Virus record (IMG/VR): IMGVR_UViG_3300027858_000005
Span: 3-64,002 of that record
Reading direction: 5' to 3' (one strand)
DNA from: a virus
DNA: 64,000 nucleotides
Shown here: positions 9,692 through 53,163 of the stretch, one piece after another
How positions within the stretch are numbered: position 1 is the first letter of the stretch
How the letters are laid out: each line of letters opens with the position of its first letter
Notes under the pieces: model-generated
Told to the model about the DNA's origin: nothing
The model's input: only the letters and a program-made list of their open reading frames with translations
The model's database searches: none
Made by a program: the position numbers and the translations under genes

Positions 9692-9694
9692 TTT

Positions 9695-29325: not shown

Positions 29326-31896
29326 TTATACCCTTGTGAAATCACGTTCCCATTTGCCAGAAATAACTTCAGGACTTCCGACAACCGCTTCAATTTCGAT
29401 TCGGTACGTTTGCGCGAATGGTTGTGGTGATGCCCACGGCGAAGTAATCGGGCTGAAGTCTACAGCGTAACCTGTGACCGCCTGCGTGCCGCCTATAGGC
29501 GATGTGCCGCCCGCGTCGCTGATGCCTGTTTGATTGAACACTTCGACTTCAGGACTGACGCCAGTATGGTAAACGCGCACGTTGTACGTGTAGCCAGTTC
29601 CGGTCGCGTTTCCGTCTTCTTGGTCGGCTTGGCGGATGGTGAACGAATTCAAACGATTGCGCCAGTTAATGTTGAACGTATCGCCCAGTTCGTCGACGTC
29701 GCCCAAACGAACACCATCAATTGAAACGTTGACCGGGGCGCTGGGTCCAAGATAACGATTTGGTGTTGCTATCGAATGATATACGCCTATTTCTGGGCTT
29801 CCGGTAGGGCTTCCGTCTGGTGGGCCTTGATCACCGCCGCCGCTGTTGCTCATAAACCACGCGGAAACACTTGCCGCCGACGGATCGAGCGCCGTCACCA
29901 TTTGCCCGACTCCATACGTGAAAAACCAAAGCACTGAATTGTCGTCGTGTCTTGCAACAGCCGTGTCGAGCATCCCTCGATGCACGCCGTTTAACTGGTA
30001 CTGCCCGCCGCCAAGATCAGACAGTGATTCGAAGAACATGATTTCGTCGTCGACTAACACCAGATTCGGCGGTACTGGGTCGTCCAATTCTGAAACTACC
30101 GCGCTATCTGTAACAAGGTCGATGTCACTCGTTGCATTTATTGTGATCACGTCATTATTAAAATTGTTCGGTGACCCTTCGTTAATTTCAACAGCGCCGT
30201 CGAGCAAGCCCGCCGGGGTGAACGGCGAAACTTGTTGGTCGAATGTGAATCCGGTTCGAACTTGCGAAACAGGGAATGTAGTATCTTGTTTTATATACGC
30301 GTCAAACGAAACCTGCGTACCGTTCGCCCGGGCCGCGAGTAATCCGATTTGCTGTATGGTGTTCACGTCTTGATACCCTAGCGGCAACAAGAACAATCGA
30401 GCGGCGCTAACGTTCACGGGGTCGTCTTGAATCGGTGTCCACAAGCTATCTGTCGGGTCTGCGAAGCTTGGCAACTCGACCCTGAAAATATCTTCGACCC
30501 AGTCATAAATAATTTCGTTCGACTCTGCTGTCCCCAGCGAAATCTTTATGATGCGAACAACAAGGTCTTCGATTTCATACGGGGGCCACGTAATTCTTGC
30601 AAGGTCGCCCGGGCGCAGGGTGTAGTTCGAACGGTCAGCTTTAATCTTGCCCTTGGCGAGCGGATAAGACAACGTACGCAGGTCACGCCATGCCAAAGCA
30701 TTCGCCAATGATCGTTCTTGTACTGCTGGGTAATTAGATGTCGCGATGACGTCGTCGTTGTTTTGAATAATCTTGTTCGCCATATCTTGCGCAACAGCGA
30801 ACGACGGTTGAAAGTTTTTTTCGCGGTCGGTGAACTGAACCTTGACCTGATTCGATGTGTCAGCCCACGCACCCCGGGCAAAATCAAACGACATTATATT
30901 CGTTTCATTGAACACGGGGATATCAGACAGGGGCGACGGGTAGTCCGTTTCGCGGATTAACCGAAGCTGCCAAAATTTTGTAACAGCATCTTGAACAAGG
31001 AACCCGTCGACTTGCTGTTCTATTTCTGTCAACAGTTCAACCGCTTGCATACCACGGTCAAGGATTCTGGCGTACCCGTTGTCTTCCCCGGCGAGTACGA
31101 CGCCCGCCGCTGCCATCTGCGTGACGTCAACATTTGAAAGACCAAGACCCCATTCAGAATTCGTCATAATTTCATAAATGACGTTCGCGGGGTTTGCGTC
31201 GTTGCCGTTGACTATGGCGTTCGCGCCCAGTGAAAGACCGTCTGGAATACGGCGCATTTCAAACGACCACGGGCGCAGGTTCGGCGCGTTGCCGATGTAC
31301 ATTTTTTCAAGTACCGCGTGAATTGTGCCCCGGTAGTTCGGCAACAACGTCGCGTCGACATCTGACAAACCCGCCATGTACGACGATTGCGCTTGATTAT
31401 TTCGCCCAGCGTACAATTGAATGGTGCCGACAACGCCGCCAGAATCTTTGCCGAAGAAGTTTTTGTCGTTTAATGTGATCGCGCCTTGTTTGATCCATCC
31501 GGCGGAAGAAGGGCGAATCAGGTTGTCGTCAATCCAGATGCGGCGAATACCTTCGTCGTACCCGGGAGCCGCCACCGTGAATTCACCACGCCCCAGCATG
31601 AAATCGATGCCAATATAATATTCATGCCCGACGGTCACCTTGTCAGAACTGAACAACCCAGTTTTAACTTTTTCCTTGATTGAATTCGTTCCGAGGTCGC
31701 CGTACCACCCGATGTTCGGCCCGTTCATTCGAACGGTTCCCCAGATAATTTGAACGGCGCGACCTTCTTCAGCGGTCGGAACTTGAAAATCTCCGAGCCC
31801 GGCGGGCTTCGCGTTTTCAAGATTTGGTTTCGGGCGCAATAATTCCGTCAGCAGGAAAACCGCCGCGTACACCAATAGTGTGATAAAGAAGCCCAT
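29326..31896 (-). CDS. Tail tip / host-specificity (central fibre hub) protein
   Basis: PTAEEGRAVQIIWGT, DANPANVIYE, NQVKVQFTDR, RGMLDT; probable ATG at 31896. Confidence 0.85.
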   Translation of the reverse strand: MGFFITLLVYAAVFLLTELLRPKPNLENAKPAGLGDFQVPTAEEGRAVQIIWGTVRMNGPNIGWYGDLGTNSIKEKVKTGLFSSDKVTVGHEYYIGIDFMLGRGEFTVAAPGYDEGIRRIWIDDNLIRPSSAGWIKQGAITLNDKNFFGKDSGGVVGTIQLYAGRNNQAQSSYMAGLSDVDATLLPNYRGTIHAVLEKMYIGNAPNLRPWSFEMRRIPDGLSLGANAIVNGNDANPANVIYEIMTNSEWGLGLSNVDVTQMAAAGVVLAGEDNGYARILDRGMQAVELLTEIEQQVDGFLVQDAVTKFWQLRLIRETDYPSPLSDIPVFNETNIMSFDFARGAWADTSNQVKVQFTDREKNFQPSFAVAQDMANKIIQNNDDVIATSNYPAVQERSLANALAWRDLRTLSYPLAKGKIKADRSNYTLRPGDLARITWPPYEIEDLVVRIIKISLGTAESNEIIYDWVEDIFRVELPSFADPTDSLWTPIQDDPVNVSAARLFLLPLGYQDVNTIQQIGLLAARANGTQVSFDAYIKQDTTFPVSQVRTGFTFDQQVSPFTPAGLLDGAVEINEGSPNNFNNDVITINATSDIDLVTDSAVVSELDDPVPPNLVLVDDEIMFFESLSDLGGGQYQLNGVHRGMLDTAVARHDDNSVLWFFTYGVGQMVTALDPSAASVSAWFMSNSGGGDQGPPDGSPTGSPEIGVYHSIATPNRYLGPSAPVNVSIDGVRLGDVDELGDTFNINWRNRLNSFTIRQADQEDGNATGTGYTYNVRVYHTGVSPEVEVFNQTGISDAGGTSPIGGTQAVTGYAVDFSPITSPWASPQPFAQTYRIEIEAVVGSPEVISGKWERDFTRV

Positions 31897-31897
31897 A

Positions 31898-32746
31898 TCA
31901 GCTTTTCGTGAACTGTGATTGATTAAAAGGATTCTTCCCGGGGACCAGTGGGAAGCCGCCGAAGTTCGGAACGTTGCTGAACTTCGTCTTGCATGTGGAA
32001 ACACTGTGGTCGCAACCCTGAAACGCCGTGACGGTTTCGCCCAGTATGTCGCGGAACGGTAACAACAAAGTAAACGTGTCGCCGCTGTGCGCGATGATCA
32101 TGCGGTAATCGTTGCCTGCTTGGTTCTGCACGTACCCACCAGTAAAATCGGACCCGGTAAAACCGTTGACAGCGATGTCGTTTCCGTCGACGCCGTTGAC
32201 CGTCCCGCTTTGCTTGAATGAGTTTTTATCGACGGTGCAGAACGAATCGTAAAGAACGTGATTGCAAAGCGACTGATATTTGTAGCGGGGGATTTCTCGA
32301 CTGAACTGTTCGTTGAACGGGTTCATGTCGATTTTGCAAGTGCGCCCGCTGAACGCGATGCTGGTGACGTAACCTTCGAACAATACAAACCCGGTCGTCG
32401 GTGCGGGCGCGGGTTCTGGGGAAGGTAACGGCGAAGTAGTCGCGACTTCATCAAGCTGTATGCGGGTGATTATGCAGTCAAGTGTCAGTGCGGGTTGAAT
32501 ACCGATGTAGTCGTTGAAGGGTCGTTCAGACGCCAACGAATCAAGGTGAACTTTTGTGTTGCGGCGCTCGCGCGGGTTTTCGCTTGGCGCGCTGCGCTTT
32601 ATTTCCAGCGGTGTATATGTGGCACCGCCGAAGATTATTTCTTCCGCGTGACTGGTAAAAAAGAACGTTTCCGAGCCGTAATCAAAACGATACAAGTCTG
32701 CCGGTCTGCTGTACCGTCCGCCTTCTAATTCTGCGAAAGTGGTCAT
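31898..32746 (-). CDS. Tail tip protein, DUF2163/BR0599-like
   Basis: CNHVLYDSFC, GCDHSVSTCKTKFSNVPNFGGFP Cys cluster. Confidence 0.9.
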   Translation of the reverse strand: MTTFAELEGGRYSRPADLYRFDYGSETFFFTSHAEEIIFGGATYTPLEIKRSAPSENPRERRNTKVHLDSLASERPFNDYIGIQPALTLDCIITRIQLDEVATTSPLPSPEPAPAPTTGFVLFEGYVTSIAFSGRTCKIDMNPFNEQFSREIPRYKYQSLCNHVLYDSFCTVDKNSFKQSGTVNGVDGNDIAVNGFTGSDFTGGYVQNQAGNDYRMIIAHSGDTFTLLLPFRDILGETVTAFQGCDHSVSTCKTKFSNVPNFGGFPLVPGKNPFNQSQFTKS

Positions 32747-34629
32747 GATTGCACGTCGCCGATGAAAACGGCTTCAACTGTAGAATCGAGAACGTCGCTT
32801 TCTGCGTCTTGCCAGTCGTGGTTGATTGTGACGTCGTCAGTTGCAAGTCGCGCAAGAATCATCAGATCAACTTTGTCGACTTCAGCAACAGTCGCCGCGA
32901 ATGATGTCGCGGGTTCGATGTTAACGCGTTCTGTTGTATCGTCAATCTTCGTGACGCTCAAAATTCTGTGGTAACTGATGCTGCCGTCGGTTTTCTTTAA
33001 CCTGAGTCCGGCCCACGGTCGTTGACCGCTGACGAAATCTGACATGCCCCAGTTGTCAACGTCAAAGTTAAACGCACCGCTACCGATGTTTGCGTTTACG
33101 TTGAAGTCGTGGCGGTGTGTCGGAATCCACGCGTTGCGAAGTTTTCCGCGCAGGTAGTACAGCAAGGAACGAAGCTGCCATTCAAACTGAACACTTTCGA
33201 CAATCCAGTTGAACGGGGTTGAACGTCTGGCAGCTAGTTCTTGCGTTAACTGCTGGAACTTGCCTATACCGTAATCGATACGTTGCAGTTTCAATTCCCA
33301 GCCTTCAGCCAAGGTGCCGCCGTCGATGTTGTTTGCATCGTCAATGATCAACGTGTCGTTGCCGTCGAAGTCGGTCAGTTCTGGATACCACGCGTTGTCG
33401 ATGCCGGGTATTGTCGGGTCGTTTTCAAGCAGGTCGAACTTCATACTGTACCGCGAAGTTTCGCCCGCTTGCGGGGTGCGCTGTTTCGCGGGGGACGCCA
33501 GAATAGAAGGCACAACCGGAACCACCGTGGCAAGGCTTCCGTCGTAGGCATTCTGCACACCTGTCGCAAAAGTGATTGTGTCCTGCGTGCTTTCTGGTGA
33601 AGCGACAGACATGATTACGTCGGATATCTGCAAGCTGTCCTGCGTGATTGTGCCGTCTGGGTTTTCCTGAAAGACCATCGCCAGCCCGCCGATTCTGAAA
33701 TCAGCGTTGTCGAGCCCACCCGGGCGAACAAATACGACGGTGTCGTTTACCGCAACATCAGCGATTAATGATCGTTCAAACCACCAAAGCGGGACACCGA
33801 AAACCCGGGAAGTCCAATCAACGAGCAGGTTACGAATCTTGTTCATGTTGGCGAGTGTCGTCGATGAAATTTCATACGATACGCTTTGTCGTGGATTCGG
33901 TCGCAGGGCGTGGCGTTGTTCGCTGCCGTCGGCACTTTTGATTATATCGGTTGACCACGCAAGAACTTCTTTTGAAGCACCTTGCGGGGTGTACGGAAAT
34001 ATAATGATCCGCGTACCAGTTAACGACAGAACAAGCGTCCCGCCTGTTGTAATGAAATCAATCGTGCCGTTGATGTTTGGCGGACCGTCCGTCGTTACGG
34101 TGACGACGTAAACCTTGTCGGCGTTCGGTGCAAGGTTCGCTGGTGTGCCCGCTCCCGTGATCGTTATTCCCGCCCCGGCATTATTGTCAATACTGTTAAG
34201 CGTCTGATTATCTTTTCGGAATGTATTTTGAATAGTTGCGTTGAAAACAGTGTCACTGACCACGTTACCCAGTGCAACAACCCCGGGATTTAACAAAACT
34301 TTTTCAAAGTAATCGAATCCTACCCCTTTCATGTCCGCCGGACCAGTGCCTAAATTTTTCCACCGCCCGGTTCCGTTCGCGCCGCGTGCGCTTCGTTGCC
34401 TCCACCCAACAATATTATCTGTTGGGGTGACCAAAATATGATAACCGCGTGCGGGAATGTCAGCGGAAAAACCGAAAGTTACGGCGTCGGGAAACCGCGT
34501 CGGTTGAACGTAAACACCACGGGAAAGTTCGTGGTTTACAGAATCGTTTAAGTCTTGGTAATTCCTATGAAACGGAACTTCTGGACCCGCTTGATTTCTA
34601 TAAAGTAATGCTCCGCTTCTCGCAGCCAT
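32743..34629 (-). CDS. Distal tail / tail assembly protein
   Basis: EVLAWSTDII...GSEQRHALRPNPRQ, LRGKLRNAWIPT; Ig-like N-terminal part. Confidence 0.75.
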   Translation of the reverse strand: MAARSGALLYRNQAGPEVPFHRNYQDLNDSVNHELSRGVYVQPTRFPDAVTFGFSADIPARGYHILVTPTDNIVGWRQRSARGANGTGRWKNLGTGPADMKGVGFDYFEKVLLNPGVVALGNVVSDTVFNATIQNTFRKDNQTLNSIDNNAGAGITITGAGTPANLAPNADKVYVVTVTTDGPPNINGTIDFITTGGTLVLSLTGTRIIIFPYTPQGASKEVLAWSTDIIKSADGSEQRHALRPNPRQSVSYEISSTTLANMNKIRNLLVDWTSRVFGVPLWWFERSLIADVAVNDTVVFVRPGGLDNADFRIGGLAMVFQENPDGTITQDSLQISDVIMSVASPESTQDTITFATGVQNAYDGSLATVVPVVPSILASPAKQRTPQAGETSRYSMKFDLLENDPTIPGIDNAWYPELTDFDGNDTLIIDDANNIDGGTLAEGWELKLQRIDYGIGKFQQLTQELAARRSTPFNWIVESVQFEWQLRSLLYYLRGKLRNAWIPTHRHDFNVNANIGSGAFNFDVDNWGMSDFVSGQRPWAGLRLKKTDGSISYHRILSVTKIDDTTERVNIEPATSFAATVAEVDKVDLMILARLATDDVTINHDWQDAESDVLDSTVEAVFIGDVQS

Positions 34630-34630
34630 A

Positions 34631-35701
34631 TCACGTTGTTACCTTTTTATAGGCAAGACCATAAAGACCAGAATTTTCAAGATTGTCAGCGGTGTTGGCT
34701 GTTTGCTTTCTGGCAACAGGGAAAGCAAGCCATGTATCTGACCCTATTGTAAATTCATCACCACCTTGTAATGAACCTTCCATTGATATATTCCTTATAT
34801 CGGGGAGAACTCCAACAGGGCGATAGTTGTCGGGGCTTGAAGCCCGGTATGTTGTCCAAAGATGAATCGGGAACATGGAACGGTAACCATTGAAAGGGGA
34901 TATCCCGTTCAAATAAAGTGGATAGTGCAGTCCACCGCGCGGGCCATTCGAGAACAACGTCCCTTTCTGCCGCCCATCTGCGTCAAGTGCGCCGGAACCG
35001 GCACCGTTATCGGCAAGACTTTGTGCTACATGCCACGCGGTTTCCGGGGACTGCCTGCCCACTACATCAGGAAAACCAGTGCCGTCTAGTTGCCTTCCGT
35101 ACAGCCAAGCAGCCGCAAACCCAGAAACACTGTCCACACACATTGCGTGTTGACCAGAAAACTTATTTTCAATGAAGGATGGTGATTGGTCCCAAACAGA
35201 ACCGTAGTAATATTCACCACCAAACCATCGACCAATCTTGTTCACCGCCCCCATACCGAAATGTCTAAAATACCCGACCGCAAATTCAACAACCGCGTGC
35301 GCGTAATAGTCACTTTCAAAGAACCAATAATTTTCAAACGGGTCAGTCGGGAAACCCGTTCTAATATGCGTCGCGCCAGTGTCCGCGTATGTCGACGACG
35401 ACGTGCCGACTTCCGTTCCAAGGTTCGGGTCGCCACTACCAGAATAATCGCGCATAGGAATCATGTTAATCAGGTCGCCGTATGAACTAGAAAAACCGAC
35501 TGGCGCAAAACCACAGTACAGGTTCACCGTGTTTTCGTCTTCCGGGCTTAACTGATTTTGACGATGGATGACCCCATAGCTAGGGCTTTGACCGGCAGCG
35601 GCGTAGTCAACGTCAGCGGTCCAGCCGTTCGCCTGCAAAAAGTTGAACCATTTGGCAGTTAAATCTTCATGCCCGGTTGCGGTTCCTGTTTCAAATGACA
35701 T
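34631..35701 (-). CDS. Virion structural protein (tail)
   Basis: MSFETGTATG N-terminus shared with the neighbour; after the tape measure. Confidence 0.7.
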   Translation of the reverse strand: MSFETGTATGHEDLTAKWFNFLQANGWTADVDYAAAGQSPSYGVIHRQNQLSPEDENTVNLYCGFAPVGFSSSYGDLINMIPMRDYSGSGDPNLGTEVGTSSSTYADTGATHIRTGFPTDPFENYWFFESDYYAHAVVEFAVGYFRHFGMGAVNKIGRWFGGEYYYGSVWDQSPSFIENKFSGQHAMCVDSVSGFAAAWLYGRQLDGTGFPDVVGRQSPETAWHVAQSLADNGAGSGALDADGRQKGTLFSNGPRGGLHYPLYLNGISPFNGYRSMFPIHLWTTYRASSPDNYRPVGVLPDIRNISMEGSLQGGDEFTIGSDTWLAFPVARKQTANTADNLENSGLYGLAYKKVTT

Positions 35702-36858
35702 TACTCATTCCTCATCGCCATAAATGTCCACGCATCAGTTCTGTGCACATTCTGAAAAACTAAATTAACGGCTTCTGGGCTTTCCCCCGTATCTGTTATC
35801 GTATCTTCTGACGACAAACCACCACCACCGGGGCACCAGTAACACCCGTCAAATTCACCAAGTAATTGATTAGAGTCAGGCATGTAAACTGTCAGCGGCC
35901 AAAGAAGCGTTGTCACCGGGGAACCCACCGTTTGCAATTGTTGAATTAGCGGCGCTCCCCCCGGAGTGGTCGAAGTGTGACTGGTGTCAATACTGACTGT
36001 CGATTGTATTTCGTTGCCCCAGTCCACACCGACTGCTATATCTCTATCCGCCAGCGGCCAAACAGAAAATATACCCGCGCCGCTATCGTGCCGACCTTCA
36101 GAACTTCCCTGCGCGTAAAAGTGCTTTCCTTGATACCAGTTACCGTCTGTGAAACGAACCCACCCGGTAGATTGCGGCGTCGGGTATGGGTCAGTGTTAG
36201 CCAGCGACCCGTTGTTGTTCCCAGCCGGTGCCACAATACCAGACGACGCGTCAATTGCATTTGTGCTGAATATTCTATTTTCAAGGTGTGATGTTCCGCA
36301 CATCATCATCGGATAGGGATATTCTGCGGCGGTCGCGAAAGTGTTCAAGAACCCGAAATAAAAAGGCTGGTATGAAGAACCTGTTTTAATAACGCCCTTG
36401 ACATGTCGGTCGTCGCCCATGAACCAATACGTCATCGACACGTTTTGCAACATCAAGTAAGAAGGCGGACTTCTACCGGGCTGATCGACAAGGTTTACAT
36501 AATCCGTTATTGGTGAATTCTGCGCAAACCCGGTTAACCCGCGAAGCTGCCAATTGTAATAACCAGTCGTTGATAAACCATAGGTTTGAATTGCGAAGTA
36601 GCATGGAACTTCAGGACTAACACCGCCGGTACTTTTAAATATAATTTGGTCGTGTGTCTGGTCGTTATTGGCGGCAGCAAGCATCAGTTCACCAGAACCA
36701 CCGACCCCAATTTCTGTTTGTGGTGAAGTTTGCGCGCTTCGTTCTTCCAGCACTTCCCAGTTAAGCCCACTTTCCGGGGAACCCGTGCCCGTCAAAAATG
36801 CCTTCAGCTTTTGAAGAAGGTCGCGGTAATCTGTTGCTGTTCCTGTTTCTGTTGCCAT
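35701..36858 (-). CDS. Virion structural protein (tail)
   Basis: MATETGTATDYRDLL, LGEFDGCYW, VFQNVHRT. Confidence 0.7.
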   Translation of the reverse strand: MATETGTATDYRDLLQKLKAFLTGTGSPESGLNWEVLEERSAQTSPQTEIGVGGSGELMLAAANNDQTHDQIIFKSTGGVSPEVPCYFAIQTYGLSTTGYYNWQLRGLTGFAQNSPITDYVNLVDQPGRSPPSYLMLQNVSMTYWFMGDDRHVKGVIKTGSSYQPFYFGFLNTFATAAEYPYPMMMCGTSHLENRIFSTNAIDASSGIVAPAGNNNGSLANTDPYPTPQSTGWVRFTDGNWYQGKHFYAQGSSEGRHDSGAGIFSVWPLADRDIAVGVDWGNEIQSTVSIDTSHTSTTPGGAPLIQQLQTVGSPVTTLLWPLTVYMPDSNQLLGEFDGCYWCPGGGGLSSEDTITDTGESPEAVNLVFQNVHRTDAWTFMAMRNE

Positions 36859-40025: not shown

Positions 40026-40052
40026 GGTGGCTTACCTTATTCATGGTTGAAA

Positions 40053-41282: not shown

Positions 41283-41295
41283 TTTTGCTTAACCT

Positions 41296-42098: not shown

Positions 42099-42101
42099 AA
42101 T

Positions 42102-43425: not shown

Positions 43426-43937
43426 TAGTTGCAACCCTCGGGTTCTGGTTTCGCGTCCCGCGTTTCTGTTGTAGTCACGACGTTTCGGTCTTCGGATTCG
43501 GGCTTGGTTGATCGCCGTTCCGATGCTGCAACGGTCGATCTGTCTTCCGAACTTGCCGAAACGTTCCGCGCCTCTGATGACGCCTTCGACGTTCTCGCCT
43601 CGCTGGTGGGTTTCGCCGTTCTATCTTCAGCCAGCGCATAACCCCGCCTAGTCTCTGGGTCCAAAGAAGCAAGCCTATCCTCATTACCAACAACCAACTT
43701 TCGACCTTCATCGTCTATTACCAATGTTCTAACTTCGCCCGCTGGGCGTAATATTCGTTGTTCGCTGACGACTTTCAACGTTCTGTCTTCCGGGTCGAAC
43801 GGGCAAACGAAGCGCAAGGCATAATCGACGCGCCCGATTCCGGGTTGTATAGTAAGCGGTTCACGTCCCAAGCCCCAAGCAACAATCGTGCCCAGAACAT
43901 CGATATCACGACCAAGACCGCGTGCAACGATAGCCAC
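43425..43937 (-). CDS. Repeat protein with 13 x 9-aa xExR repeats
   Basis: PEDRTLKVV / SEQRILRPA / ... / TETRDAKPE. Confidence 0.75.
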   Translation of the reverse strand: MAIVARGLGRDIDVLGTIVAWGLGREPLTIQPGIGRVDYALRFVCPFDPEDRTLKVVSEQRILRPAGEVRTLVIDDEGRKLVVGNEDRLASLDPETRRGYALAEDRTAKPTSEARTSKASSEARNVSASSEDRSTVAASERRSTKPESEDRNVVTTTETRDAKPEPEGCN

Positions 43938-43938
43938 A

Positions 43939-44553
43939 TCAAGTCACCTTGCCCCGACGATCTGCGCCTTGACCGCGATACGGCTGCGTTGCAGCAACGT
44001 CTTCGAACAAGTCACCTTGAAGTAGAATTGTGGTGTCATCATCGTCATATATTTCTATTCTACCTGTTCCCGGGTCAGTATGGGTACGATTTGTCAAGAT
44101 TTTTCTGGTCGTGGTAGTGTTCTCGCCGATTAAAGTGATCCCGTCAAGCAGGTTCGTTACTTTATTTTCAACGTTCACAGTGTACGGACCATCGACCGGG
44201 ATCGAAATAGATTGCCCCGCCGGGTCGGTGAAAATGTTACCGACGATCTGCCAGCGGTGATGACCTTCGGCAGCTTTGAACCGCCAGCCGTTTGTCACAA
44301 AGTAGGTAATGCCAAGATTTTCAACGTCAGATGTCGGGTCACCGCCGACTATTCGAACCGCTGGTGGGAATCCAAGATTACCCGTTGACGGCGACCCAGC
44401 GTTGTCCGCGACAAACTGTTTCCACTCGCTATAAATTTCTTGCGCGTTGGTTATGTTATCAACAAGCGTTTCCGGGCTGGTTTCCGGGCTAGGCGGAACC
44501 CCGATTTCGATAATCAGCAAGCGTTCGGTGTCAAATGTGACGACGTTAGGCAT
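43939..44553 (-). CDS. Putative virion protein
   Basis: VTFD...EIYSEWK...VGGDPT...YFVTNGWR; related motif in the 48001 protein. Confidence 0.65.
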   Translation of the reverse strand: MPNVVTFDTERLLIIEIGVPPSPETSPETLVDNITNAQEIYSEWKQFVADNAGSPSTGNLGFPPAVRIVGGDPTSDVENLGITYFVTNGWRFKAAEGHHRWQIVGNIFTDPAGQSISIPVDGPYTVNVENKVTNLLDGITLIGENTTTTRKILTNRTHTDPGTGRIEIYDDDDTTILLQGDLFEDVAATQPYRGQGADRRGKVT

Positions 44554-46451
44554 TACGGATTCTCGAAGTTCCGGTCTAAAATTTGGGAAATCGGGAACGA
44601 CGTTGACGTCGTTGGGATAGTAAAGTTCTTAATGCGGTTGTTCGGCGGCAATATCCAATCGACATTGAACACAACAATATCAACCACCGTGCCCGCTGCG
44701 GCACTGAATGTGAATTCAGACGGCGACCCTGTGTCTTCAATGCCCGCAATTTCAGTGGTATCAATCGGGCTGGTGAAATCTTCCGCATGATAAACGCGGA
44801 CTTCTGTAAATTCTTCAATGTTCGTTAAAGTAACTGACACATTGTTATTAATAGTCGTGCCCGGGGATTGCTTATCGGTGAACGTCGGTGTGTCACCGTC
44901 GGTTATATTCAATATCACTGCACCAATACCGTTAAACAATGCAGCGTCGGTTGTATCGTTACCGTCGGGGCTAGTGCCATCTAACCATTGCCCGTCAAAC
45001 AAGTTGCTCGGAAAAGAAAACTCACCTTCTGCGAGTAAATTTATCGCGTGACCCGCACCCGCACCGGAAAATAAAAAAGAATTACCAATAAGCCCCGCCG
45101 GGTTCGCAGTCCATAGATACGCGACGTCTTCAGGACTTCCCAAAATTGGCGATTCATCAAATGTTTGTGGTGTTGCGGTGACAATTGTGTTCGCTTGAAA
45201 ATTTGCACCGACACCGCCGCCTGACCCAAAAGCAAAACCAAAGCCCAGCCATTCAGACGAAGGGGCGTTAGTGGTAAGTGTGAATTCCCAGCCGTCACTA
45301 TTGAAAGACCACCCAGAAGCAACGACAGCAGAACCAGCGCCGTCGCTATCTAATATATCAAGGTCTGTTGCTGTCATCGACTTTGCAACTGATGTCGAAA
45401 CGTTATCTTGCCCAGAAATCGAAACAACACCTAGTGCGGCTTTCCTATCGAATGCCGCTATAGATATGGTTTTGTCCCCCGTGGCGTCGGCAGCATTTCT
45501 GGAAGACACCCCGCCCGCCGTGAATATCATTCCGAAATCTGGTTCGAATCCCGGGTTCGTTTCGGTGTAATCACCAGACGTCGGCCACGCCATATCAAAA
45601 AGCGCCATTTGTGGGTTGTCAGTGAAACGAAAACATAAGTGCAAAATGTCATCACTCCCGCCGCCGCCAGTACCGTCAGTTCTTATGTCAAACCCGGTTG
45701 CTGTAAACGCTGTTAACGTGCAATCGTATTGAACGCCGCCGCCTAGCATCCCATGCGCGAGAACGTCATTGCTAATTATTGCAGTTATGTCGGTTGGGTC
45801 TTCAGCGTTGCCAGCGGAGTGACCTATTGCCCGTTGTGTCAAACTCCCGTCGTTGATTGCAACACCGAACGAAAGGTAATTATTTTCTTTCCAGTCAGTG
45901 GTTCCAACAGTCGTTAAGTTGTTAATAGCGAAAACTAAATCAGGTGTGAAGCCCGGGGTTGTTATATTAATTGTTTCCCCGTTAGTCGTTCCCATTCTAG
46001 TATGATTGCAATCGACTTCAGCGATATCTGACCCTGTAAACAAAACACAAAGAACTGACGGAAAAATTTGTGGCGAATCGTTAAAAGGTGTTGTAACGGT
46101 AAACCTTATACCGTCTTCTATAAATGAATCAAAATCCCATTGACCCACCGCTTCGGGGCTTTGTGTGTCTGCACGCACCATTATTATAGATGAATTACTA
46201 TCGGCGCGACCGTTGAAAGCTGGGTTATCGTTGTCCCGCATGTAACCAGCGTAAACTCGCTGATTCGTGCCGTCTGTAATTCCAATCGACAACAAACCGC
46301 TTGCTTCAACTACACCGTCAGTTTGACCGTTATTTGTGTAACAAATTGCCGCTTTTGGTAGCCCGATTCCGGGTATGGTGACGTCGACTGTTCCAGCCGC
46401 CCCAGTATCATCGACATTAAAAACAACAACATGTTTTTTTACATCAGCCAT
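44553..46451 (-). CDS. Large beta-rich putative virion (fibre/decoration) protein
   Basis: Three internal PG(F/I)xP-type repeats; C-terminal EVRVY...EIAGIE...DRNFENP. Confidence 0.65.
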   Translation of the reverse strand: MADVKKHVVVFNVDDTGAAGTVDVTIPGIGLPKAAICYTNNGQTDGVVEASGLLSIGITDGTNQRVYAGYMRDNDNPAFNGRADSNSSIIMVRADTQSPEAVGQWDFDSFIEDGIRFTVTTPFNDSPQIFPSVLCVLFTGSDIAEVDCNHTRMGTTNGETINITTPGFTPDLVFAINNLTTVGTTDWKENNYLSFGVAINDGSLTQRAIGHSAGNAEDPTDITAIISNDVLAHGMLGGGVQYDCTLTAFTATGFDIRTDGTGGGGSDDILHLCFRFTDNPQMALFDMAWPTSGDYTETNPGFEPDFGMIFTAGGVSSRNAADATGDKTISIAAFDRKAALGVVSISGQDNVSTSVAKSMTATDLDILDSDGAGSAVVASGWSFNSDGWEFTLTTNAPSSEWLGFGFAFGSGGGVGANFQANTIVTATPQTFDESPILGSPEDVAYLWTANPAGLIGNSFLFSGAGAGHAINLLAEGEFSFPSNLFDGQWLDGTSPDGNDTTDAALFNGIGAVILNITDGDTPTFTDKQSPGTTINNNVSVTLTNIEEFTEVRVYHAEDFTSPIDTTEIAGIEDTGSPSEFTFSAAAGTVVDIVVFNVDWILPPNNRIKNFTIPTTSTSFPISQILDRNFENP

Positions 46452-46454
46452 GTG

Positions 46455-47555
46455 TCACCTTGAATGAATCAAGCGTTGACCGTCGATCAAAGCACAATTT
46501 CGCATGTCGGCGTTTTTGCTATCAATATCGATTACGCCAGAATGCAATAACAAACAACCAAAAAAGTTCGCTTCTTGTAGAGTGCCGTCGGTTGCTTTAA
46601 TAAACCATCTGGGACCGTCTTCCGCTGCGGTTACAACCCAACCCAAAGCACCAACTTCGCCCGCCAACTGCCCCGCCTGAAACAATTGTACATTTGCGTT
46701 GTCTGCAACTATCGTAAACCCGTAAAAACCATCAGCCACAAGTTGACTTTCCCACGCGATGATTCTTGTCAAATCGGAAAATTTATGGTTGCCGGGGTCA
46801 GGGGAAACCGGGATCAGCCCGTTAGAACTTCCGAATTGAATCGGGGCATTAATTTTTATTACACCGTCACTTTGCGATATCATACCCCATGCTTTAGCAG
46901 GGTCGGAATTGTCGCCAGCTTCTACAATATCCAGCCAATTGTAAGGAACTTCTGGGGAACTGCCCGCGTTACCTTCGACAATGATTCCCGGCTCACCTGC
47001 CGGTAGCCGCCACATTGCATCGACAAAATGATTGTCAGCGCCGCCCGGTGCAGAAGATAACACGTCGAACACAATCAAGATTCTGCGAATTGCCGTCGTT
47101 GCTGGCGGGGTTCCGTTTGTTGCGCCATCGGTCGAAGGTGATGCTTCAACAGCAAGTTCGCGGGCTTTATCAATATCGACCACCGACATTTTAAAACCGC
47201 CGCCGTATGTGTCCGACCCGTCAATATTAACTTCGAACCAGTCAGTAACCGTCGCACCTGTAAAACGCATCGTGACCCCGGCAGCGGCTTTCGTTCCCAG
47301 CTTGCCCGCCACGTCAGAACGCCACCAGACATAAAAAACATTCCCCGACCAGTCCCGGTCGGCGTCTTCACGCCACCCGATTCCACCGCGCGAGCTAGAA
47401 AGGCGGTCAGCAGCAGACGAAACACCTTCAATAAACGTGTCAGTATCTAGTGCTATCGCCATCGTGCTGTCGGCGTCGTCAATCCAGTCGCCACCGCTGC
47501 CCGGGGCCAGTGATTCCGCGTCAGCGATTAATATTCTGTTATCAATTATCGGCAT
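46455..47555 (-). CDS. Putative virion protein
   Basis: Acidic beta-rich 366-aa ORF in the structural operon. Confidence 0.6.
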   Translation of the reverse strand: MPIIDNRILIADAESLAPGSGGDWIDDADSTMAIALDTDTFIEGVSSAADRLSSSRGGIGWREDADRDWSGNVFYVWWRSDVAGKLGTKAAAGVTMRFTGATVTDWFEVNIDGSDTYGGGFKMSVVDIDKARELAVEASPSTDGATNGTPPATTAIRRILIVFDVLSSAPGGADNHFVDAMWRLPAGEPGIIVEGNAGSSPEVPYNWLDIVEAGDNSDPAKAWGMISQSDGVIKINAPIQFGSSNGLIPVSPDPGNHKFSDLTRIIAWESQLVADGFYGFTIVADNANVQLFQAGQLAGEVGALGWVVTAAEDGPRWFIKATDGTLQEANFFGCLLLHSGVIDIDSKNADMRNCALIDGQRLIHSR

Positions 47556-47988
47556 GGTCGCCCCTATCCGCCAGCACTATTGCAGCGGCTTGATCAGCCC
47601 ATAAACTGTTCGGTGAAATCGTCAACCAATCCCCCTTCAAATCTGTTTCTTGTTCATGCCAAGCATACGGCATTCCGCAAGCATTACCACCAAAGCAATA
47701 AAGAACATCTGTTGGGTGAACGAAGTCTGAAAGAAACGTTGCAGTTCTGTTAAGCGGAATATCTTTTTCGACGAACACGAACGATTTGTCAGACGGGATT
47801 TCGGCAAAATCGTCAACGATAGTGTGCGGGGTTTGAAGGCTGATTGAATCCCACGCAAGGTTTTGCGCTTTGTTGATCAAATAACAATGCTCCACGCCGA
47901 AAGCGGCGCAAAGCGTTTGCCATCTGTCAAAAGTTACTTCGACCGGGTCAAGTGACCTTCTTTCGACGTAAAAGCATATTTCAAGCAC
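47542..47988 (-). CDS. SPOUT-like RNA methyltransferase
   Basis: FVHPTDVLYCFGGNACG and LTISPNSLWADQAAAIVLADR resemble SPOUT knot motifs. Confidence 0.55.
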   Translation of the reverse strand: MLEICFYVERRSLDPVEVTFDRWQTLCAAFGVEHCYLINKAQNLAWDSISLQTPHTIVDDFAEIPSDKSFVFVEKDIPLNRTATFLSDFVHPTDVLYCFGGNACGMPYAWHEQETDLKGDWLTISPNSLWADQAAAIVLADRGDHADN

Positions 47989-48000
47989 ATCACCCCACCA

Positions 48001-50241
48001 TTACGGATTGTTGAAGTTTCTTTCAAGCGGCGCAACAAGCGTGAAATCGTTGGTCGTTGACCGTTGTATTGTACCAGTAGTTTCAACAAACTGCGCAAGG
48101 TCCGTTCCGATTGCCCGAACTGCGACCGCTGCGTCAGTAGCGGGTGTTCTTCCGCCCTGATCGTTGCCGTCGTAATCGTAGTCATAAGACACACTTGAAC
48201 CCGGCACAAGCCCGGTGATCGGTTGCGGGCTATGTGTGCTGTCCGAATTAACGATGATCGAATCAGGGCTGTCAATCGGGTTTTCGTCAACGCTACCAGA
48301 AACCGGGCCTTCGTCGGTCAGTGTTAGCGTGCTGTCGTATGCCTGAACATCGATATCAGAACTTGAATTGAAAGCGATGACCAAGAAGACGCCGTTGTTG
48401 TTCGGGTCAGTGAACCCGTTCAGGTTGATGTATTCGCCCGCTACAACGGTCGGGAATTGCGCGGTACAAGTGATGTTCGCGTCACTGCCGACAATCGTTC
48501 CAATTGACAAATCGGTAATGACCGTTCGCGTGGTGTACCGATAGAACATTGAATACGTTGCGGGTCCAGTGTCGTTCTGCAAGTTTTCATTGAAGAAAAT
48601 GTTGCCCGCTGCCACGAACGGAAACGTTCTGGTAAGACCGTCGTTATCAATAAACGAAATCCTGTTGGTATCCGCCGCATTGAAGTTGATGATCGTAACA
48701 CCCGTGCCGCCGCCGCTTGGATTGGTCGCAGCGAGTGTACCAAGCGAATCACCAACGAAGGCAAGTAATTCATCTGCCGTTTTGCCGGTAACAACGTCGT
48801 TACCCGGGGACAAAATATTGTCGTTGATGTTGGCCGCTTGCCGCAATGAAAATTGGACGTATTCGTAAACGAATTCGAGTGACAGCCCTTTTGCATCGAT
48901 CACGATTCCGAACGCTGCGTCAGTTTGTGGTGACTGGGTGCTTGCGCCGTCAGCGTTAAAGCCGCTGATGACCTGCGCCGTACCAAAGTATTCAATGGTG
49001 ACTGTTGGCGACCTTGTGGAAACTGTTGCGTCTGCATTAAGAACCTTCAGGTCGGCAGAATTCGCCAACGGGAATCGATACACCTGATTCGTCAATACGG
49101 TTACACCGATATCGGCGAGGGCAGCTTGCGCATAGGTCTTGCCGGAATCCGGGTCAAGTGCCGTGGTGAAACCTTCACGCAGGAACAGGGTTAGCAGGTT
49201 TCTGTTATCGACTGCAACGTCAGCGGTGCGTTCGTTCGGCGAGGTTGTCGCGGTGAATGACGCGGCGGTTACAGTAACGACGCCAGCGGTTACCGCAAGA
49301 ACGTCGAAGGTGCCGTCGTTCACCGGGCTGGTGCCGCTGCAATTCTCGACGGTGATTTGACCGCCAACTTGAACGCCGTCAGTGATCCAGCTTCCACCGT
49401 CGTTCCGCGTGATGCTGTCGGTTCCGAAATCGAGTCCCAGACCAGCGCCGCCGCCGTTATTCACGACGCGGTTGTAAACCAAGACAGATTCGTTGACCGG
49501 GCCGTCGAAATCGAAGTCGATTGCAGCGCCCGTGTCGGTCGGGTCGTTGCCCTGCTGGTAGTACGCCCGGTCGGTTGCTTCAACAAACGGTCCCAGCGTA
49601 ATAGCGCAAATGTACTGTTTGATCAATTCGCCGTCAGTGTCCAGTTCAGACCAGCCGCCAGTTCTAATCAGTTTTCGTGTGCGGAACGTTGCCGGGGAAG
49701 CGTTGGTGTCGTCCGCCGGATTCCAGTTTTCGGAAAATTCGTACTGTTCTGGGGTGATCGCAACCATCGGGAAGACAAACGGAATCAACGTGTCGTCGTC
49801 TTTCCATTCTTCTTTCAGGAACGAATAAAGTGCCTGTTCGGTGACGCCGTCGGCGTCAACACGCCCCTGTTCCAGCAGGTATATGTCACGATCACCCGTG
49901 GCGATGTGAACTGACTTCTGGTTGTCTGATTCTGGCGAACTGGCAGAATTGCCAAGCCACGTTATTGATTCAGACCCGGCGGTGACCGGGTTGTTGCCTG
50001 AAATCTTCTTCGCGGTGACTGAACTTGTCGTTGGTGACCCGCCGACTTCTTGGTATAAGCCGTTGTTGCGTCCGTCACTGTGGTCGCGGATTTCGAAGAA
50101 TTCCCCGGCTATGATTACCGGAAGTGTTGCCGCTGAAGTGATGACTGCTTCGTCAAGTGGTGAACCAACGGTGAAGGTAACTGCGGCGGGGGCTGTAATC
50201 GCGCCTTGCGAAAGATCGTCTGGATCAGTGCGAAGTGTCAT
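48001..50241 (-). CDS. Large putative virion protein (746 aa)
   Basis: GVTEQALYSFLKEEW, IRTGGWSE, C-terminal ERNFNNP; 11 SP motifs; ATG at 50241. Confidence 0.7.
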   Translation of the reverse strand: MTLRTDPDDLSQGAITAPAAVTFTVGSPLDEAVITSAATLPVIIAGEFFEIRDHSDGRNNGLYQEVGGSPTTSSVTAKKISGNNPVTAGSESITWLGNSASSPESDNQKSVHIATGDRDIYLLEQGRVDADGVTEQALYSFLKEEWKDDDTLIPFVFPMVAITPEQYEFSENWNPADDTNASPATFRTRKLIRTGGWSELDTDGELIKQYICAITLGPFVEATDRAYYQQGNDPTDTGAAIDFDFDGPVNESVLVYNRVVNNGGGAGLGLDFGTDSITRNDGGSWITDGVQVGGQITVENCSGTSPVNDGTFDVLAVTAGVVTVTAASFTATTSPNERTADVAVDNRNLLTLFLREGFTTALDPDSGKTYAQAALADIGVTVLTNQVYRFPLANSADLKVLNADATVSTRSPTVTIEYFGTAQVISGFNADGASTQSPQTDAAFGIVIDAKGLSLEFVYEYVQFSLRQAANINDNILSPGNDVVTGKTADELLAFVGDSLGTLAATNPSGGGTGVTIINFNAADTNRISFIDNDGLTRTFPFVAAGNIFFNENLQNDTGPATYSMFYRYTTRTVITDLSIGTIVGSDANITCTAQFPTVVAGEYINLNGFTDPNNNGVFLVIAFNSSSDIDVQAYDSTLTLTDEGPVSGSVDENPIDSPDSIIVNSDSTHSPQPITGLVPGSSVSYDYDYDGNDQGGRTPATDAAVAVRAIGTDLAQFVETTGTIQRSTTNDFTLVAPLERNFNNP

Positions 50242-50651
50242 GGGTCTGAATCTCCAAAGCTGCAAAATTCGCGCAATACGCGCGGGGAATGAATTTTAAC
50301 CCCTTCAAGGCTTCCCGCAGCAAGGGTTCAGTTCCGACAATTGTAGCTGATTGCAGGAACTTTGTGCAACCCATAGGAACCGAATCGAACAAAAACAAAC
50401 AACCGACATTTTCCATCGGTTCTTCGTTGTCGAGATAGAATAGCGCGTTTCGCGGTGCTTGTGGTAGCGAAAACGTAGGAATTCCAGTGAAAATCTTAGA
50501 TTCAACCCGGCTTTTCCGGGTATCGTAACAGTGAACAGGTCGCCCCAGACTAGCGATAACCCCTATCGGTTTCGTGTGATTCAGTATTCCTGCAACGACC
50601 GTGTTTCCGAACTTGTAGTTCGAGCCCCGACAAACTTCGTATATCAGGCTG
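50225..50651 (-). other. Start-less open frame or structured spacer
   Basis: About 140 stop-free codons in the +1 frame of the upstream gene; also several hairpins. Confidence 0.35.
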
Positions 50652-51116: not shown

Positions 51117-51136
51117 GGTGGCGTTCTCCGCTAGTT

Positions 51137-51167
51137 AAAAATGGGGGCTCCCCTGACAGAAGCCCCC
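51137..51167 (-). terminator. Terminator after the major capsid gene
   Basis: GGGGGCT/AGCCCCC stem plus U tract. Confidence 0.75.
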
Positions 51168-51184
51168 GGAACTACCCTGACAAT

Positions 51185-52219
51185 TTAGAGTTGTGAACGG
51201 ATGACCACACCCGGCAAGTCTTTGTTGTCGTCCATCACTGAATCCCAGTTGGAACTGGTGCCCAGTGCGGCTTCGTCGGGGTTAACCCCGCCGTTTGCGA
51301 CATCCCACTTGATACCTTTCAGACCCATGTTGTAGGCAAATTCACCTTGCAAACGGGTTACCAGATTTTCTTGCCCGGTAATGACTTCGGTATGAAGCAT
51401 GTCTTCTTCGCTGTCTTCGGCGACACAACTATTTTCAACCAGACCCAAAGTCGCGTACTGGGTAGGTGAAACACTGTCGTCGATCAGTGCAGCCGAATCG
51501 GTAATCAGAACCGGACGGTTCAGGGTGACCGGCGTCGCTGTGGCAACGTTGAAGTTTGAAACACCGTCAATGTTATCGGTGATCTGTGAAGATACCAACT
51601 CGTAATACGGCTTCGAGTGCATGACCCAGATTTTGACCCGGCTGGCGGCGTCGCCAAACAGTGCCAGACCGTTGACAAGGTCGAGCGTGTCAAGACCGGC
51701 TTGCGGACTTGCACCGCCAGCGTCGCCGTCATACACAAGACCAGCTTGTGCAGTGATCCCGGCAACTAACGATGTAACGCAGGCGTCAAGCATTTCGACT
51801 TGCATTGCTTTCGCGATTTGCTCACCGAGCAAGAACGAAAGAACTTCAAGATCAGCCGAAGCGCCCAGCTTGCGGAATGAATCGAGAGTTTGATCGATAG
51901 GCCCGATACGACGATTCAGCTTCACGCTGATGAATTCTTCGATAGGGACGGCGCTTGATGCTACTGCCGGATTTGCGGGGGACACGTTAACTTCCCGGCG
52001 CTGGATGATATTTGCAACGTTCTTGAAGAACGATTCTTGTGCGAAGTCACCTTTCTGACGATTGGTAACCATGCGGATTGCATTCAGCGATTGCGCGTTA
52101 AACGCATTCGATACCTGAACGAGAGTTTCAGACATGCCCGAATGGACAAGTTCTGGGTAGATAATTCCTTCTGGTAATCTACCAACACCAGCGAACGATT
52201 CGCGAGTACCTTCTGTCAT
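51185..52219 (-). CDS. Major capsid protein
   Basis: 344 aa after the scaffold; FNAQSLNAI, VMHSKPY, GIKWD..NGG.NP. Confidence 0.92.
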   Translation of the reverse strand: MTEGTRESFAGVGRLPEGIIYPELVHSGMSETLVQVSNAFNAQSLNAIRMVTNRQKGDFAQESFFKNVANIIQRREVNVSPANPAVASSAVPIEEFISVKLNRRIGPIDQTLDSFRKLGASADLEVLSFLLGEQIAKAMQVEMLDACVTSLVAGITAQAGLVYDGDAGGASPQAGLDTLDLVNGLALFGDAASRVKIWVMHSKPYYELVSSQITDNIDGVSNFNVATATPVTLNRPVLITDSAALIDDSVSPTQYATLGLVENSCVAEDSEEDMLHTEVITGQENLVTRLQGEFAYNMGLKGIKWDVANGGVNPDEAALGTSSNWDSVMDDNKDLPGVVIRSQL

Positions 52220-53069: not shown

Positions 53070-53163
53070 TTGTTGGCTTCCCGCTATTATTAACGCAGAA
53101 TTGATTATATTCCTGAATGAGAACAAAAGGCAAACTTTTATGTGAAAATAATTACAAAAACCC

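Follow-up and report, generated by a model that had tools for sequence, protein, structure and literature searches.

Virion glycosylation is established for mycobacteriophages and hardly explored elsewhere. We analysed a viral DNA stretch of 64,000 nucleotides (the window), from a record that is about 88% complete and represents a phage known from metagenomes only. Its structural genes raise the question why the outer virion proteins are so rich in Ser-Pro (SP) dipeptides, and whether these could be the sequon of a phage-encoded O-glycosylation, as an earlier note on this DNA had proposed. In the literature that we searched, no virion surface marked by SP in this way was described.

Ser-Pro dipeptides in exposed and internal virion proteins

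Across the 15 proteins of the outer virion set (5,821 amino acids) we counted 67 SP, compared to 22.5 expected from shuffles within each protein (z=9.9), that is, about three times chance. By the same shuffles SP ranked first among all 400 dipeptides, PE was raised (31 observed, 14.7 expected), and the reversed and Thr-containing pairs stayed at expectation (observed/expected: PS 24/22.3, TP 24/26.0, PT 25/26.2). An SP excess was also looked for by shuffles in internal, packaging and replication proteins and was absent (internal set 5/5.7, non-structural proteins 23/18.2). The claim that SP is dense on surface proteins and not on internal ones was thus borne out, and it survives the comparison of SP with PS as a control for composition. 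Our recount agreed almost exactly with the per-protein numbers given before, including the six SP in six replication proteins (2,844 amino acids), the absence of SP from tape measure and scaffold, and the 20 SPE sites (about 20 in our hands).

Shuffling of codons yielded 20.3 ± 4.4 SP (maximum 34 in 500 shuffles, versus 67 observed). Since 18 different Ser-Pro hexamers are in use, the SP excess is not a DNA motif. BLAST revealed neither paralogy nor internal repeats among the SP-rich proteins. Varied codons encode the sites, and the proteins are unrelated to one another, so the signal lies at the protein level. The motif excess is Ser-specific, specific for the direction S-then-P and restricted to exposed virion proteins. 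Around the sites we found a 6.4-fold enrichment of Glu at +2 and one of about 2-fold for Thr or Gly at -2; SPE is mostly followed by Thr, Val, Ser or Pro. The sites are located in loops and indels, some of them within Pro-rich linkers, and are either positionally conserved or part of insertions.

The structural genes, all on the minus strand, carry the motif from head to tail tip. The major capsid protein (51185–52219; Gp13-like HK97 fold, Pfam PF20036, E=1e-80) contains SP three times, at positions 80, 171 and 251 of its 344 residues; a structure model of low confidence places all three in segments without regular structure. A 754-residue homologue of the Syn5 structural protein gp53 (48001–50265; tblastn to Syn5 gp53, Rctr197k_178 and Panino_100) contains 11 SP versus 2.8 expected, and a 632-residue protein (44553–46451), whose C-terminus is similar to Syn5 gp54 and Rctr197k_179, contains 8 versus 2.3. 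The 366-residue protein of the same block (46455–47555; no family found), with orthologues in G003 and L009, has 3 versus 1.3. Three SP, among them those of the stretch PPSPETSPET, occur in a 204-residue protein (43939–44553) that resembles Syn5 gp55 (BLAST 4e-6) and Rctr197k_180 (2e-27); Syn5 gp55 is a knob-like capsid decoration positioned on the capsid E-loop (PMC4102127). A 128-residue Pro-rich protein (43048–43434; no family found) has 5 versus 1.1 expected.

In the tail, the tube-like protein (40053–41282; phrog_290) has 6 SP versus 1.5 expected and no PS, the sites lying within residues 26–213 of 409. The two distal tail proteins (34631–36858; both phrog_687) follow with 6 versus 1.6 (34631 protein) and 7 versus 2.0 (35701 protein). 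Family matches place tail tip (phrog_1101), hub (BR0599-type) and a further tail protein (phrog_1082) at 29326–34629; the tip has 12 SP versus 3.5 expected (11 if it starts downstream of its overlap with 31898–32746), the other two have two each. No SP was present in the internal tape measure protein (36858–39302; 814 residues), in any of the neck proteins (41296–43051; terminator, two small proteins and a DnaT_2-type adaptor) or in the scaffold protein (52263–53234; phrog_206).

A cassette of putative glycan enzymes

Four genes on the minus strand form a candidate cassette. Enzyme A (8961–9896; phrog_4603, 2e-28) and its tandem paralogue B (8351–8992; phrog_4603, 1.9e-18) are about 30% identical and share the invariant columns. 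The AlphaFold model of A (pLDDT 94.6), whose catalytic core comprises about the last 206 residues, found its best predicted fold matches in CstII/Cst-I (GT42), the Maf protein 5mu5 and WaaZ at TM 0.72, with a probability of 1.00 for 5mu5 and CstII in the structure search. Its motifs GxGPSL and NSGYQ...G.D align to Cst-I, ATGPSL falling on GNGPSL. Judged from these models, the 'Maf-like' genes have the fold of CMP-ulosonic-acid glycosyltransferases, with the signature motifs kept. Matches to Pfam PF01973 (Maf/MptE, DUF115) scored 23.3 and 20.0 bits, below the cut-off of 34.6; some homologues at 31–40% identity carry a precomputed PF01973 match, and homologues are 190–260 residues long. The phage enzymes thus share core fold and GxGPSL motif with Maf, but stay below the Pfam threshold and lack the flagellin-binding domains.

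The two other genes encode an FkbM-type methyltransferase (7639–8364; PF05050, 6.4e-8, above cut-off; phrog_8156) and a glycosyltransferase (GT, 6923–7714; phrog_1962, nearest named clusters GT8 and Nucleotid_trans), the latter conserved in G002, G003 and G020–G023. Both had been announced together with a sulfotransferase, which family searches of the genome's proteins did not find. A 256-residue protein of a viral family (12886–13656, minus strand) had no direct Pfam match; Capsule_synth (KpsS/KpsC-type) occurs in a minority of its neighbouring clusters, a lead only.

Some observations count against glycosylation. It is the replication module, and not the late genes, that harbours the cassette, which has polA beside it and the clamp as a further neighbour. 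The record, about 88% complete, encodes no CMP-sugar synthetase. No sequon is known for Maf enzymes, which also accept Thr and have large substrate-binding domains that the phage proteins lack.

The position beside polA and clamp could also mean that the cassette glycosylates phage DNA and that the SP excess is unrelated. A dNMP-kinase-like gene fits this explanation, and phage GTs that hypermodify DNA have a precedent (Pyle et al. 2024, as cited in PMC12619734). However, a hydroxymethyl-pyrimidine pathway would be expected beside the GTs, and no thymidylate-synthase-like hydroxymethylase was detected in the 64-kb record (no PF00303 match at about 88% completeness; the control matched in 10 of 14 genomes). 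DNA glycosylation would leave the SP signal unexplained, and to our knowledge no member of the sialyltransferase/Maf/WaaZ fold acts on DNA. We regard it as very improbable.

Both proline-directed kinases and the hydroxyproline glycosylation of plants have Ser-Pro as their minimal motif. Host or phage enzymes might modify SP differently, either by phosphorylation or, as in the Ser-Hyp motifs of plants, by hydroxylation of the proline and subsequent glycosylation. The small cupin gene at 485–931, which is highly conserved, would suit this. Yet this cupin is of the Cupin_2 type, and its 148 residues are fewer than a typical prolyl hydroxylase needs. Among the proteins of at least 150 residues we found no protein kinase, prolyl hydroxylase, hydroxymethylase or 2-oxoglutarate oxygenase domain, and the only recognised protein- or glycan-modifying enzymes are glycosyltransferases and methyltransferases. 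Such a modification appears improbable to us.

Motif and cassette among relatives

Every sufficiently complete clade member carries the cassette, and the SP excess was present in every clade relative. Pooled over the clade orthologues, the outer proteins contain 154 SP versus 48.5 expected, internal and packaging proteins 29 versus 41.7 and replication proteins 22 versus 38.0. Of the Ser at SP sites 62% were conserved, of the remaining Ser 44% (Fisher P=2e-4); where a site was lost, a gap mostly took its place, and TP did so in a single case. SP is thus over-represented on outer proteins, neutral or under-represented elsewhere and conserved above background, as would be expected of a sequon. 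The three capsid sites are kept across clade relatives at 61–80% identity. The tail tube sites are conserved in G001, and G002 retains some and adds four of its own, holding its SP density through its own sites. Tail-tip orthologues have 13 SP versus 4.7 expected (G020) and 15 versus 5.4 (G023).

A composition or gene-calling artefact has next to no chance of causing this pattern, and nothing was found in its favour. It is rejected by the within-protein and codon shuffles and by direction and Ser specificity, and is also countered by the recurrence of the excess in 26 orthologues from other records and by reading frames that are backed by families or homologues.

In phages without the cassette, pooled outer orthologues contain 9 SP versus 9.1 expected. 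Five cassette-less proviruses have a 4-residue gap or other residues in place of the capsid sites, and the single SP in the tail tube homologue of cassette-less G004 is at a different position. The gp53-like homologues of Syn5, Rctr197k and Panino, where a profile that matched the positive control D3 detected no Maf-like gene, have 2, 3 and 0 SP. In a matched comparison, Rctr197k has its 3 SP at 48% identity versus 10–14 in each of the clade members at 53%, and several clade SP columns are TP or gaps in Rctr197k. Its 632-residue protein homologue, Rctr197k_179, has 0 versus 1.0 expected. The expectation that orthologues from GT-less relatives lack the SP insertions was thus confirmed for capsid and gp53-like homologues at similar distance.

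The family phrog_4603 occurs on at least 567 viral contigs; its members in P1 (PmgO/PmgP), D3 (orf6.5-7) and Caulobacter jumbo phages are 25–28% identical to the phage enzymes and lie inside head or tail morphogenesis modules, which counts in favour of virion glycosylation. We looked for an SP excess in 15 other lineages with distant homologues (phage D3 and 14 IMG/VR records; enzyme identity 41% or less, GT also present in five) and it was absent, the D3 virion proteins having 26 SP versus 21.4 expected. Motif and enzyme occur together in all clade members, and both cassette-less homologues and distant-enzyme lineages are without the motif. The link between them therefore rests on one clade and one evolutionary event.

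This absence, together with the cassette's location and the position of the sites in loops, indels and Pro-rich linkers, would also suit an unmodified structural or biophysical motif, selected because it keeps exposed surfaces rigid, resistant to proteases or soluble in seawater, while the cassette acts elsewhere, for example on the host envelope. But such a motif does not explain why TP and PS are not enriched, or why Rctr197k has TP where the clade has SP, and same-fold homologues in other marine phages manage without it. The residues after SPE do not fit a helix N-cap, and in this phage's non-structural proteins, which are rich in helices, SP is hardly in surplus. We consider it unlikely, albeit with a real chance of being correct.

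The best reading, at a probability of roughly 45% and on one clade-level correlation, is that S-P(-E) may be a sequon whose Ser is O-glycosylated by phage-encoded enzymes, because every sufficiently complete clade member carries the cassette. The earlier proposal of a sequon-directed glycan coat is supported in part, by the restriction to exposed proteins, the conservation in the clade together with the cassette and the absence from cassette-less homologues; the 15 lineages with distant enzymes do not conform to it. We infer Ser modification, initiating enzyme, sugar identity and coat role as follows. S-P, often S-P-E/Q/T after a small or Thr/Gly residue, would be a selected surface motif of the clade; inside the host cytoplasm, enzymes of the phage itself would O-glycosylate it at the Ser hydroxyl of exposed loops. 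Enzyme A, B or both might load Ser with an ulosonic acid, either Kdo or a nonulosonic acid, that is drawn in CMP-activated form from the host pool; the GT and the FkbM methyltransferase could extend or cap the glycan. The product would be a glycan coat over capsid, Syn5-type appendages, tail tube and tail tip. The specific version, in which minimal Maf-like enzymes of a marine siphophage clade attach CMP-activated ulosonic acid to a strict Ser-Pro(-Glu) sequon on a dozen exposed proteins, is more tentative.

If true, this would be the first description, for a phage other than actinobacteriophages, of an acidic glycan coat that is directed by a sequon and covers the whole particle. Selection would have turned Thr-Pro loops into Ser-Pro and inserted new SP loops, and phrog_4603 (P1 PmgO/PmgP, D3 orf7) would gain a function. 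Such a coat might change how the particle adsorbs, how stable it is in seawater, how capsid-sensing defences recognise it and how antigenic a therapeutic phage is. The signature is simple and countable; if it predicts the modified proteins and loops, the question could be tested on metagenomes alone. Even without a glycan, a Ser-specific dipeptide selected only on exposed virion surfaces would need explaining.

Comparison with known systems

The best structural matches, GT42 CstI/CstII and the Kdo transferase WaaZ (E 1e-4 to 2e-6, TM 0.6–0.72), share the signature motifs, but are 10–14% identical to the phage enzymes and use lipooligosaccharide sugars as acceptors, not protein. The Maf/DUF115 flagellin GTs (PDB 5mu5) have the catalytic core fold and a GxGPSL-type nucleotide motif in common with them. 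Maf takes nonulosonic acid from its CMP-activated form and O-links it to Ser/Thr of a protein that is in the cytoplasm but bound for an external filament, and by analogy the same chemistry is proposed here. True Maf proteins, however, have about 600 residues with extra flagellin- or substrate-binding domains, belong to flagellar glycosylation islands and modify Thr too, without a known sequon; the phage enzymes are cores of about 200 residues below the Pfam threshold, beside polA, clamp, FkbM methyltransferase and GT. The phrog_4603 proteins of P1, D3 and Caulobacter phages are of the same family and sit in morphogenesis modules; the D3 virion proteins, however, have no SP excess.

In the O-glycosylation of Bacteroidota, a short motif (D-S/T-A/I/L/V/M/T) likewise directs Ser/Thr glycosylation to numerous proteins that have no relation to each other, but the system is periplasmic, lipid-linked and host-encoded, and the motif is another one. 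For mycobacteriophages of the Che8 type (Freeman et al. 2023), virion O-glycosylation with capsid and tail tube sites is described in PMC12619734 and PMC11256854. According to these sources, phage-encoded GTs probably cover the subunits of capsid and tube with glycans that are synthesised in the cytoplasm of the host, as would be the case here; the glycans, shown by mass spectrometry in an actinobacterial host, are at the C-termini of two proteins. In contrast, the marine siphophage studied here, known from its sequence, combines sialyltransferase-fold enzymes with a Ser-Pro motif that is dispersed over a dozen proteins of head and tail, the tail tip included, and not gathered at C-termini.

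Genome layout and the outer virion proteins

The IMG/VR record originates from marine metagenomes; it is linear, 64,011 bp long and ~88% complete, and the window covers almost all of it. No RNA datasets are listed among the sequencing runs containing the record, and the DNA runs are marine metagenomes, one of which probably yielded the record. Using megablast, we found no close relative among GenBank phages, the capsid identity being 38% at best. The minus strand carries nearly all genes of the window. Its late region starts with the terminase (59219-60661), followed by the portal and a MuF-like protein, and continues through the scaffold (52263-53234) and the Gp13-like major capsid protein (51185-52219) to a block of large proteins without family assignment between capsid and neck genes (43939-50265). 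After the neck proteins come a tail tube-like protein (40053-41282), chaperones, the tape measure (36858-39302) and, at the end of the late region, five distal tail proteins (down to 29326) and an amidase. The head module further contains a collagen-like Gly-X-Y protein (56094-56618, minus strand; Pfam Collagen 1.7e-5, under the cut-off) and a 192-aa ORF faintly similar to methyltransferases (54152-54730, minus strand).

Genes of the replication region specify Pam3 gp32/33/34-like proteins, an SNF2 helicase, an AEP primase, a UvrD helicase, a clamp and a family A polymerase. Immediately after the polymerase gene come two tandem phrog_4603 genes, enzyme A (8961-9896) and enzyme B (8351-8992). 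Together with an FkbM methyltransferase (7639-8364) and a phrog_1962 glycosyltransferase (6923-7714) they form a four-gene group 3' of the polymerase, here called the cassette.

Syn5 is a podovirus whose gp53 and gp54 form a 'horn'. Within the block between capsid and neck genes, the 754-aa protein is homologous to the structural protein gp53 of Syn5 (an Atlas look-up of it was uninformative), the 632-aa protein matches gp54 with its C-terminus and the 204-aa protein matches gp55. In Syn5, gp55 decorates the capsid exterior as a knob bound at the E-loop (PMC4102127). Thus, the outer proteins of our phage are plausibly exposed on the virion. The order of the three genes is the same in virus Rctr197k. 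In this siphophage, a block homologous to and collinear with Syn5 gp53-gp54-gp55 and Rctr197k genes 178-180 occupies the space between capsid and neck genes (43939-50265, minus strand), and the module seems to be exchanged among marine phages that differ widely.

Ser-Pro excess in the window and across the clade

An earlier note had proposed that Ser-Pro(-Glu) motifs on surface virion proteins are a sequon for phage-encoded O-glycosylation. Its counts of Ser-Pro (SP) were reproduced by recounting, and comparison with shuffled versions of each protein confirmed an excess on the outer virion proteins that is stronger than its author could know. In 15 outer virion proteins (5,821 aa) we found 67 SP versus 22.5 expected (z 9.9), which makes SP the most enriched of all 400 dipeptides in this set. 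Neither the reverse order Pro-Ser (24 observed versus 22.3 expected) nor Thr-Pro (24 versus 26.0) or Pro-Thr (25 versus 26.2) was enriched in the outer set, and its Pro-Glu excess (31 versus 14.7) arises because about 20 of the sites read SPE. The internal proteins (tape measure, scaffold, MuF, portal and terminase) contained 5 SP versus 5.7 expected, 30 non-structural proteins contained 23 versus 18.2, and all five neck proteins contained none. SP sites carry a small or Thr/Gly residue at position -2 or -1, and Glu at +2 is enriched 6.4-fold.

Shuffling codons within genes yielded 20.3 ± 4.4 in-frame Ser-Pro hexamers versus the 67 observed, which are encoded by eighteen different hexamers. 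The signal therefore lies in the protein, and a DNA motif is ruled out as its source. Repeats or paralogy are likewise ruled out: BLAST among the SP-rich proteins revealed neither paralogy nor internal repeats, which means that the sites evolved independently in proteins of unrelated fold. A helix N-cap role is unlikely, judged from the residues following SPE and from the baseline of the non-structural proteins.

We then analysed relatives with capsid proteins 61-80% identical to ours, using whole IMG/VR records with called ORFs. An SP excess was present in all of G002, G003, G020, G021, G023, L001/L002 and L009, for instance in a 492-aa protein (15 versus 3.0 expected), a 583-aa protein (11 versus 1.9) and two tail tips (13 versus 4.7 and 15 versus 5.4). 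In the relative G001 it was weaker (tube 6 versus 1.9, capsid protein 4 versus 1.3). Pooled without the window, and with a few near-identical fragments counted twice (L004 with G001, L007 with G003), the outer orthologues of the relatives (26 proteins, 12,395 aa) contained 154 SP versus 48.5 expected, a 3.2-fold excess, and only 35 Pro-Ser. The same pool gave ratios of 0.70 for internal and packaging orthologues (29 versus 41.7; 43 proteins, 16,120 aa) and 0.58 for replication and glyco-enzyme orthologues (22 versus 38.0; 44 proteins, 15,762 aa). This deficit in non-virion proteins of G001-G003 and G020-G023 (loci L034-L043, L153-L156 and L182-L186), which could reflect avoidance of off-target sites, is not seen in the window.

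In the capsid alignment, three SP sites are kept clade-wide between variable flanks. Among all alignable orthologues, serine was conserved in 62% of cases at SP sites and in 44% at other positions (Fisher P=2e-4). SP sites that were not kept most often corresponded to a gap in the orthologue (19 of 43) and only once to Thr-Pro. In the tail tube of G002, some sites were lost and four private ones acquired. Such turnover in the alignments points to selection acting on motif density rather than on a particular structural contact.

Homologues without the enzymes

We compared two independent outgroups of homologues from records in which no Maf-like gene was detected. The first consists of ten proviruses and viral contigs with related capsid, tube and tape-measure genes, in which the enzyme A query found no match. 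Their outer orthologues contained 9 SP versus 9.1 expected. In five cassette-less proviruses with capsid proteins 46-53% identical to ours, the first capsid SP site is a four-residue gap and the others are replaced by other residues.

As second outgroup we used the gp53-like homologues. A Maf-like profile search of the Syn5, Rctr197k and Maribacter phage Panino records returned nothing and found the positive control, phage D3; the Rctr197k genome is partial, so that the absence of the enzyme is uncertain there. The homologue of Rctr197k (48% identity) contained 3 SP versus 2.0 expected, that of Syn5 2 versus 1.4 and that of Panino 0 versus 1.2. Clade members at 53% identity showed 10-14. Several homologous columns read Ser-Pro in the clade and Thr-Pro or a gap in Rctr197k. 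Both outgroups address the comparison with glycosyltransferase-less relatives that the earlier note had named.

SP might be a purely structural loop motif. The AlphaFold model of the capsid protein is poor (pLDDT 61.5) and supports only that all three SP sites lie in non-regular segments, not that they are solvent-exposed: one within the low-confidence stretch 55-96 before strand 97-105, one after the long helix 124-156 and one before the strand at 254. A loop motif leaves unexplained the specificity for Ser over Thr and for S-P over P-S, as well as its absence from homologous folds in other marine phages. We conclude that SP is very likely functional, as a selected surface motif. The sites may carry a modification other than a glycan; among proteins of at least 150 aa, however, neither kinase nor hydroxylase domains were detected.

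The cassette and its candidate role in glycosylation

Pfam matches of the phage enzymes to MptE-like/Maf families were sub-threshold, and a PDB sequence search returned nothing significant. The 206-residue core of enzyme A gave a confident AlphaFold model (pLDDT 94.6), whose best structural matches were the Campylobacter sialyltransferases CstII and Cst-I, Maf 5mu5, the Kdo transferase WaaZ (TM 0.72) and eukaryotic sialyltransferases. In a sub-threshold profile match, the family motifs ATGPSL and NSGYQ...G.D align to the matching motifs of Cst-I. CstII/Cst-I, Maf, WaaZ and the eukaryotic sialyltransferases all use CMP-activated ulosonic acids; a donor of this kind would therefore be the most economical assumption for the phage enzymes. 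The record encodes no cytidylyltransferase or CMP-sugar synthetase; if the phage infects a Gram-negative host, the CMP-Kdo pool of the cell could be one source.

The start of enzyme A deserves mention. On the minus strand (9540-9760), polA stops at TAG 9697-9695; translation from the ATG at 9691 would read another frame (ORF 9191-9691). The enzyme A frame is open from 9896 and contains no ATG, GTG or TTG from ~9734 to a Val-Met just before ATGPSL, yet a conserved strand upstream of this Val-Met is part of the fold. For the true start this leaves two options, a GTG with which the gene would overlap polA by ~40 nt, or recoding at A7 or C6 tracts.

The sulfotransferase gene of the earlier note was not found in Pfam and PHROGs scans of the window. 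A KpsS-like identity of 12886-13656 was dismissed as a weak lead, carried by a minority of its Atlas cluster and with no Pfam match. A 148-aa Cupin_2 protein (485-931, minus strand) is 50-73% identical in G001, G002, G003 and G021; its identity in G001 (72%) and G002 (66%) is as high as that of the capsid protein (71% and 64%). One possibility is a sugar-nucleotide isomerase or epimerase. No family matches a 115-aa ORF (5651-5998, minus strand) in which 28% of the residues are serine, and the ORF may be spurious.

The cassette, located among early or middle genes, occurs in every sufficiently complete clade member, and its co-occurrence with the motif is one evolutionary origin. Phage D3 showed no SP excess (26 versus 21.4 expected), nor did 14 IMG/VR lineages with distant enzyme homologues (identity 41% or less), five of which also encode the glycosyltransferase. 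Thus, encoding an enzyme of this family is not by itself a predictor of the motif: either the lineages differ in acceptor specificity, or enzyme and motif are linked by coincidence. A search of further phage lineages carrying distant Maf-like genes for an SP excess or an alternative Ser/Thr dipeptide turned up only localised Ser-Gly or Gly-Ser excesses in single large proteins. Two such proteins, one in each of the unrelated phages G034 (6393-8465) and G026 (3934-5586; loci L177 and L187), have a strong excess (32 versus 13.1 and 29 versus 12.5) that is not particle-wide.

The cassette might instead glycosylate phage DNA, but the usual hydroxymethylase was not found in the record and the motif would be left unexplained. 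An S-P(-E) sequon that is O-glycosylated by the sialyltransferase-fold enzymes is the best-supported reading, to which we assign a probability of roughly 45%. Our literature searches yielded no described equivalent.

Members of the phrog_4603 family are widespread among phages, occurring on at least 567 IMG/VR stretches, and in annotated phages they sit in morphogenesis modules. The family member of D3 is flanked by the major head protein and the head-tail adaptor, those of P1 are pmgO/pmgP, and in Caulobacter phages it adjoins a tail protein. In D3 (L072, 5858-6391) the profile matches two pieces within one 215-aa open frame that GenBank lists as two genes; judged from this frame, orf6.5 and orf7 are probably one Maf-like gene. 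Flagellar Maf enzymes have extra domains that are absent from the phage proteins, which at ~200 aa consist of a minimal core.
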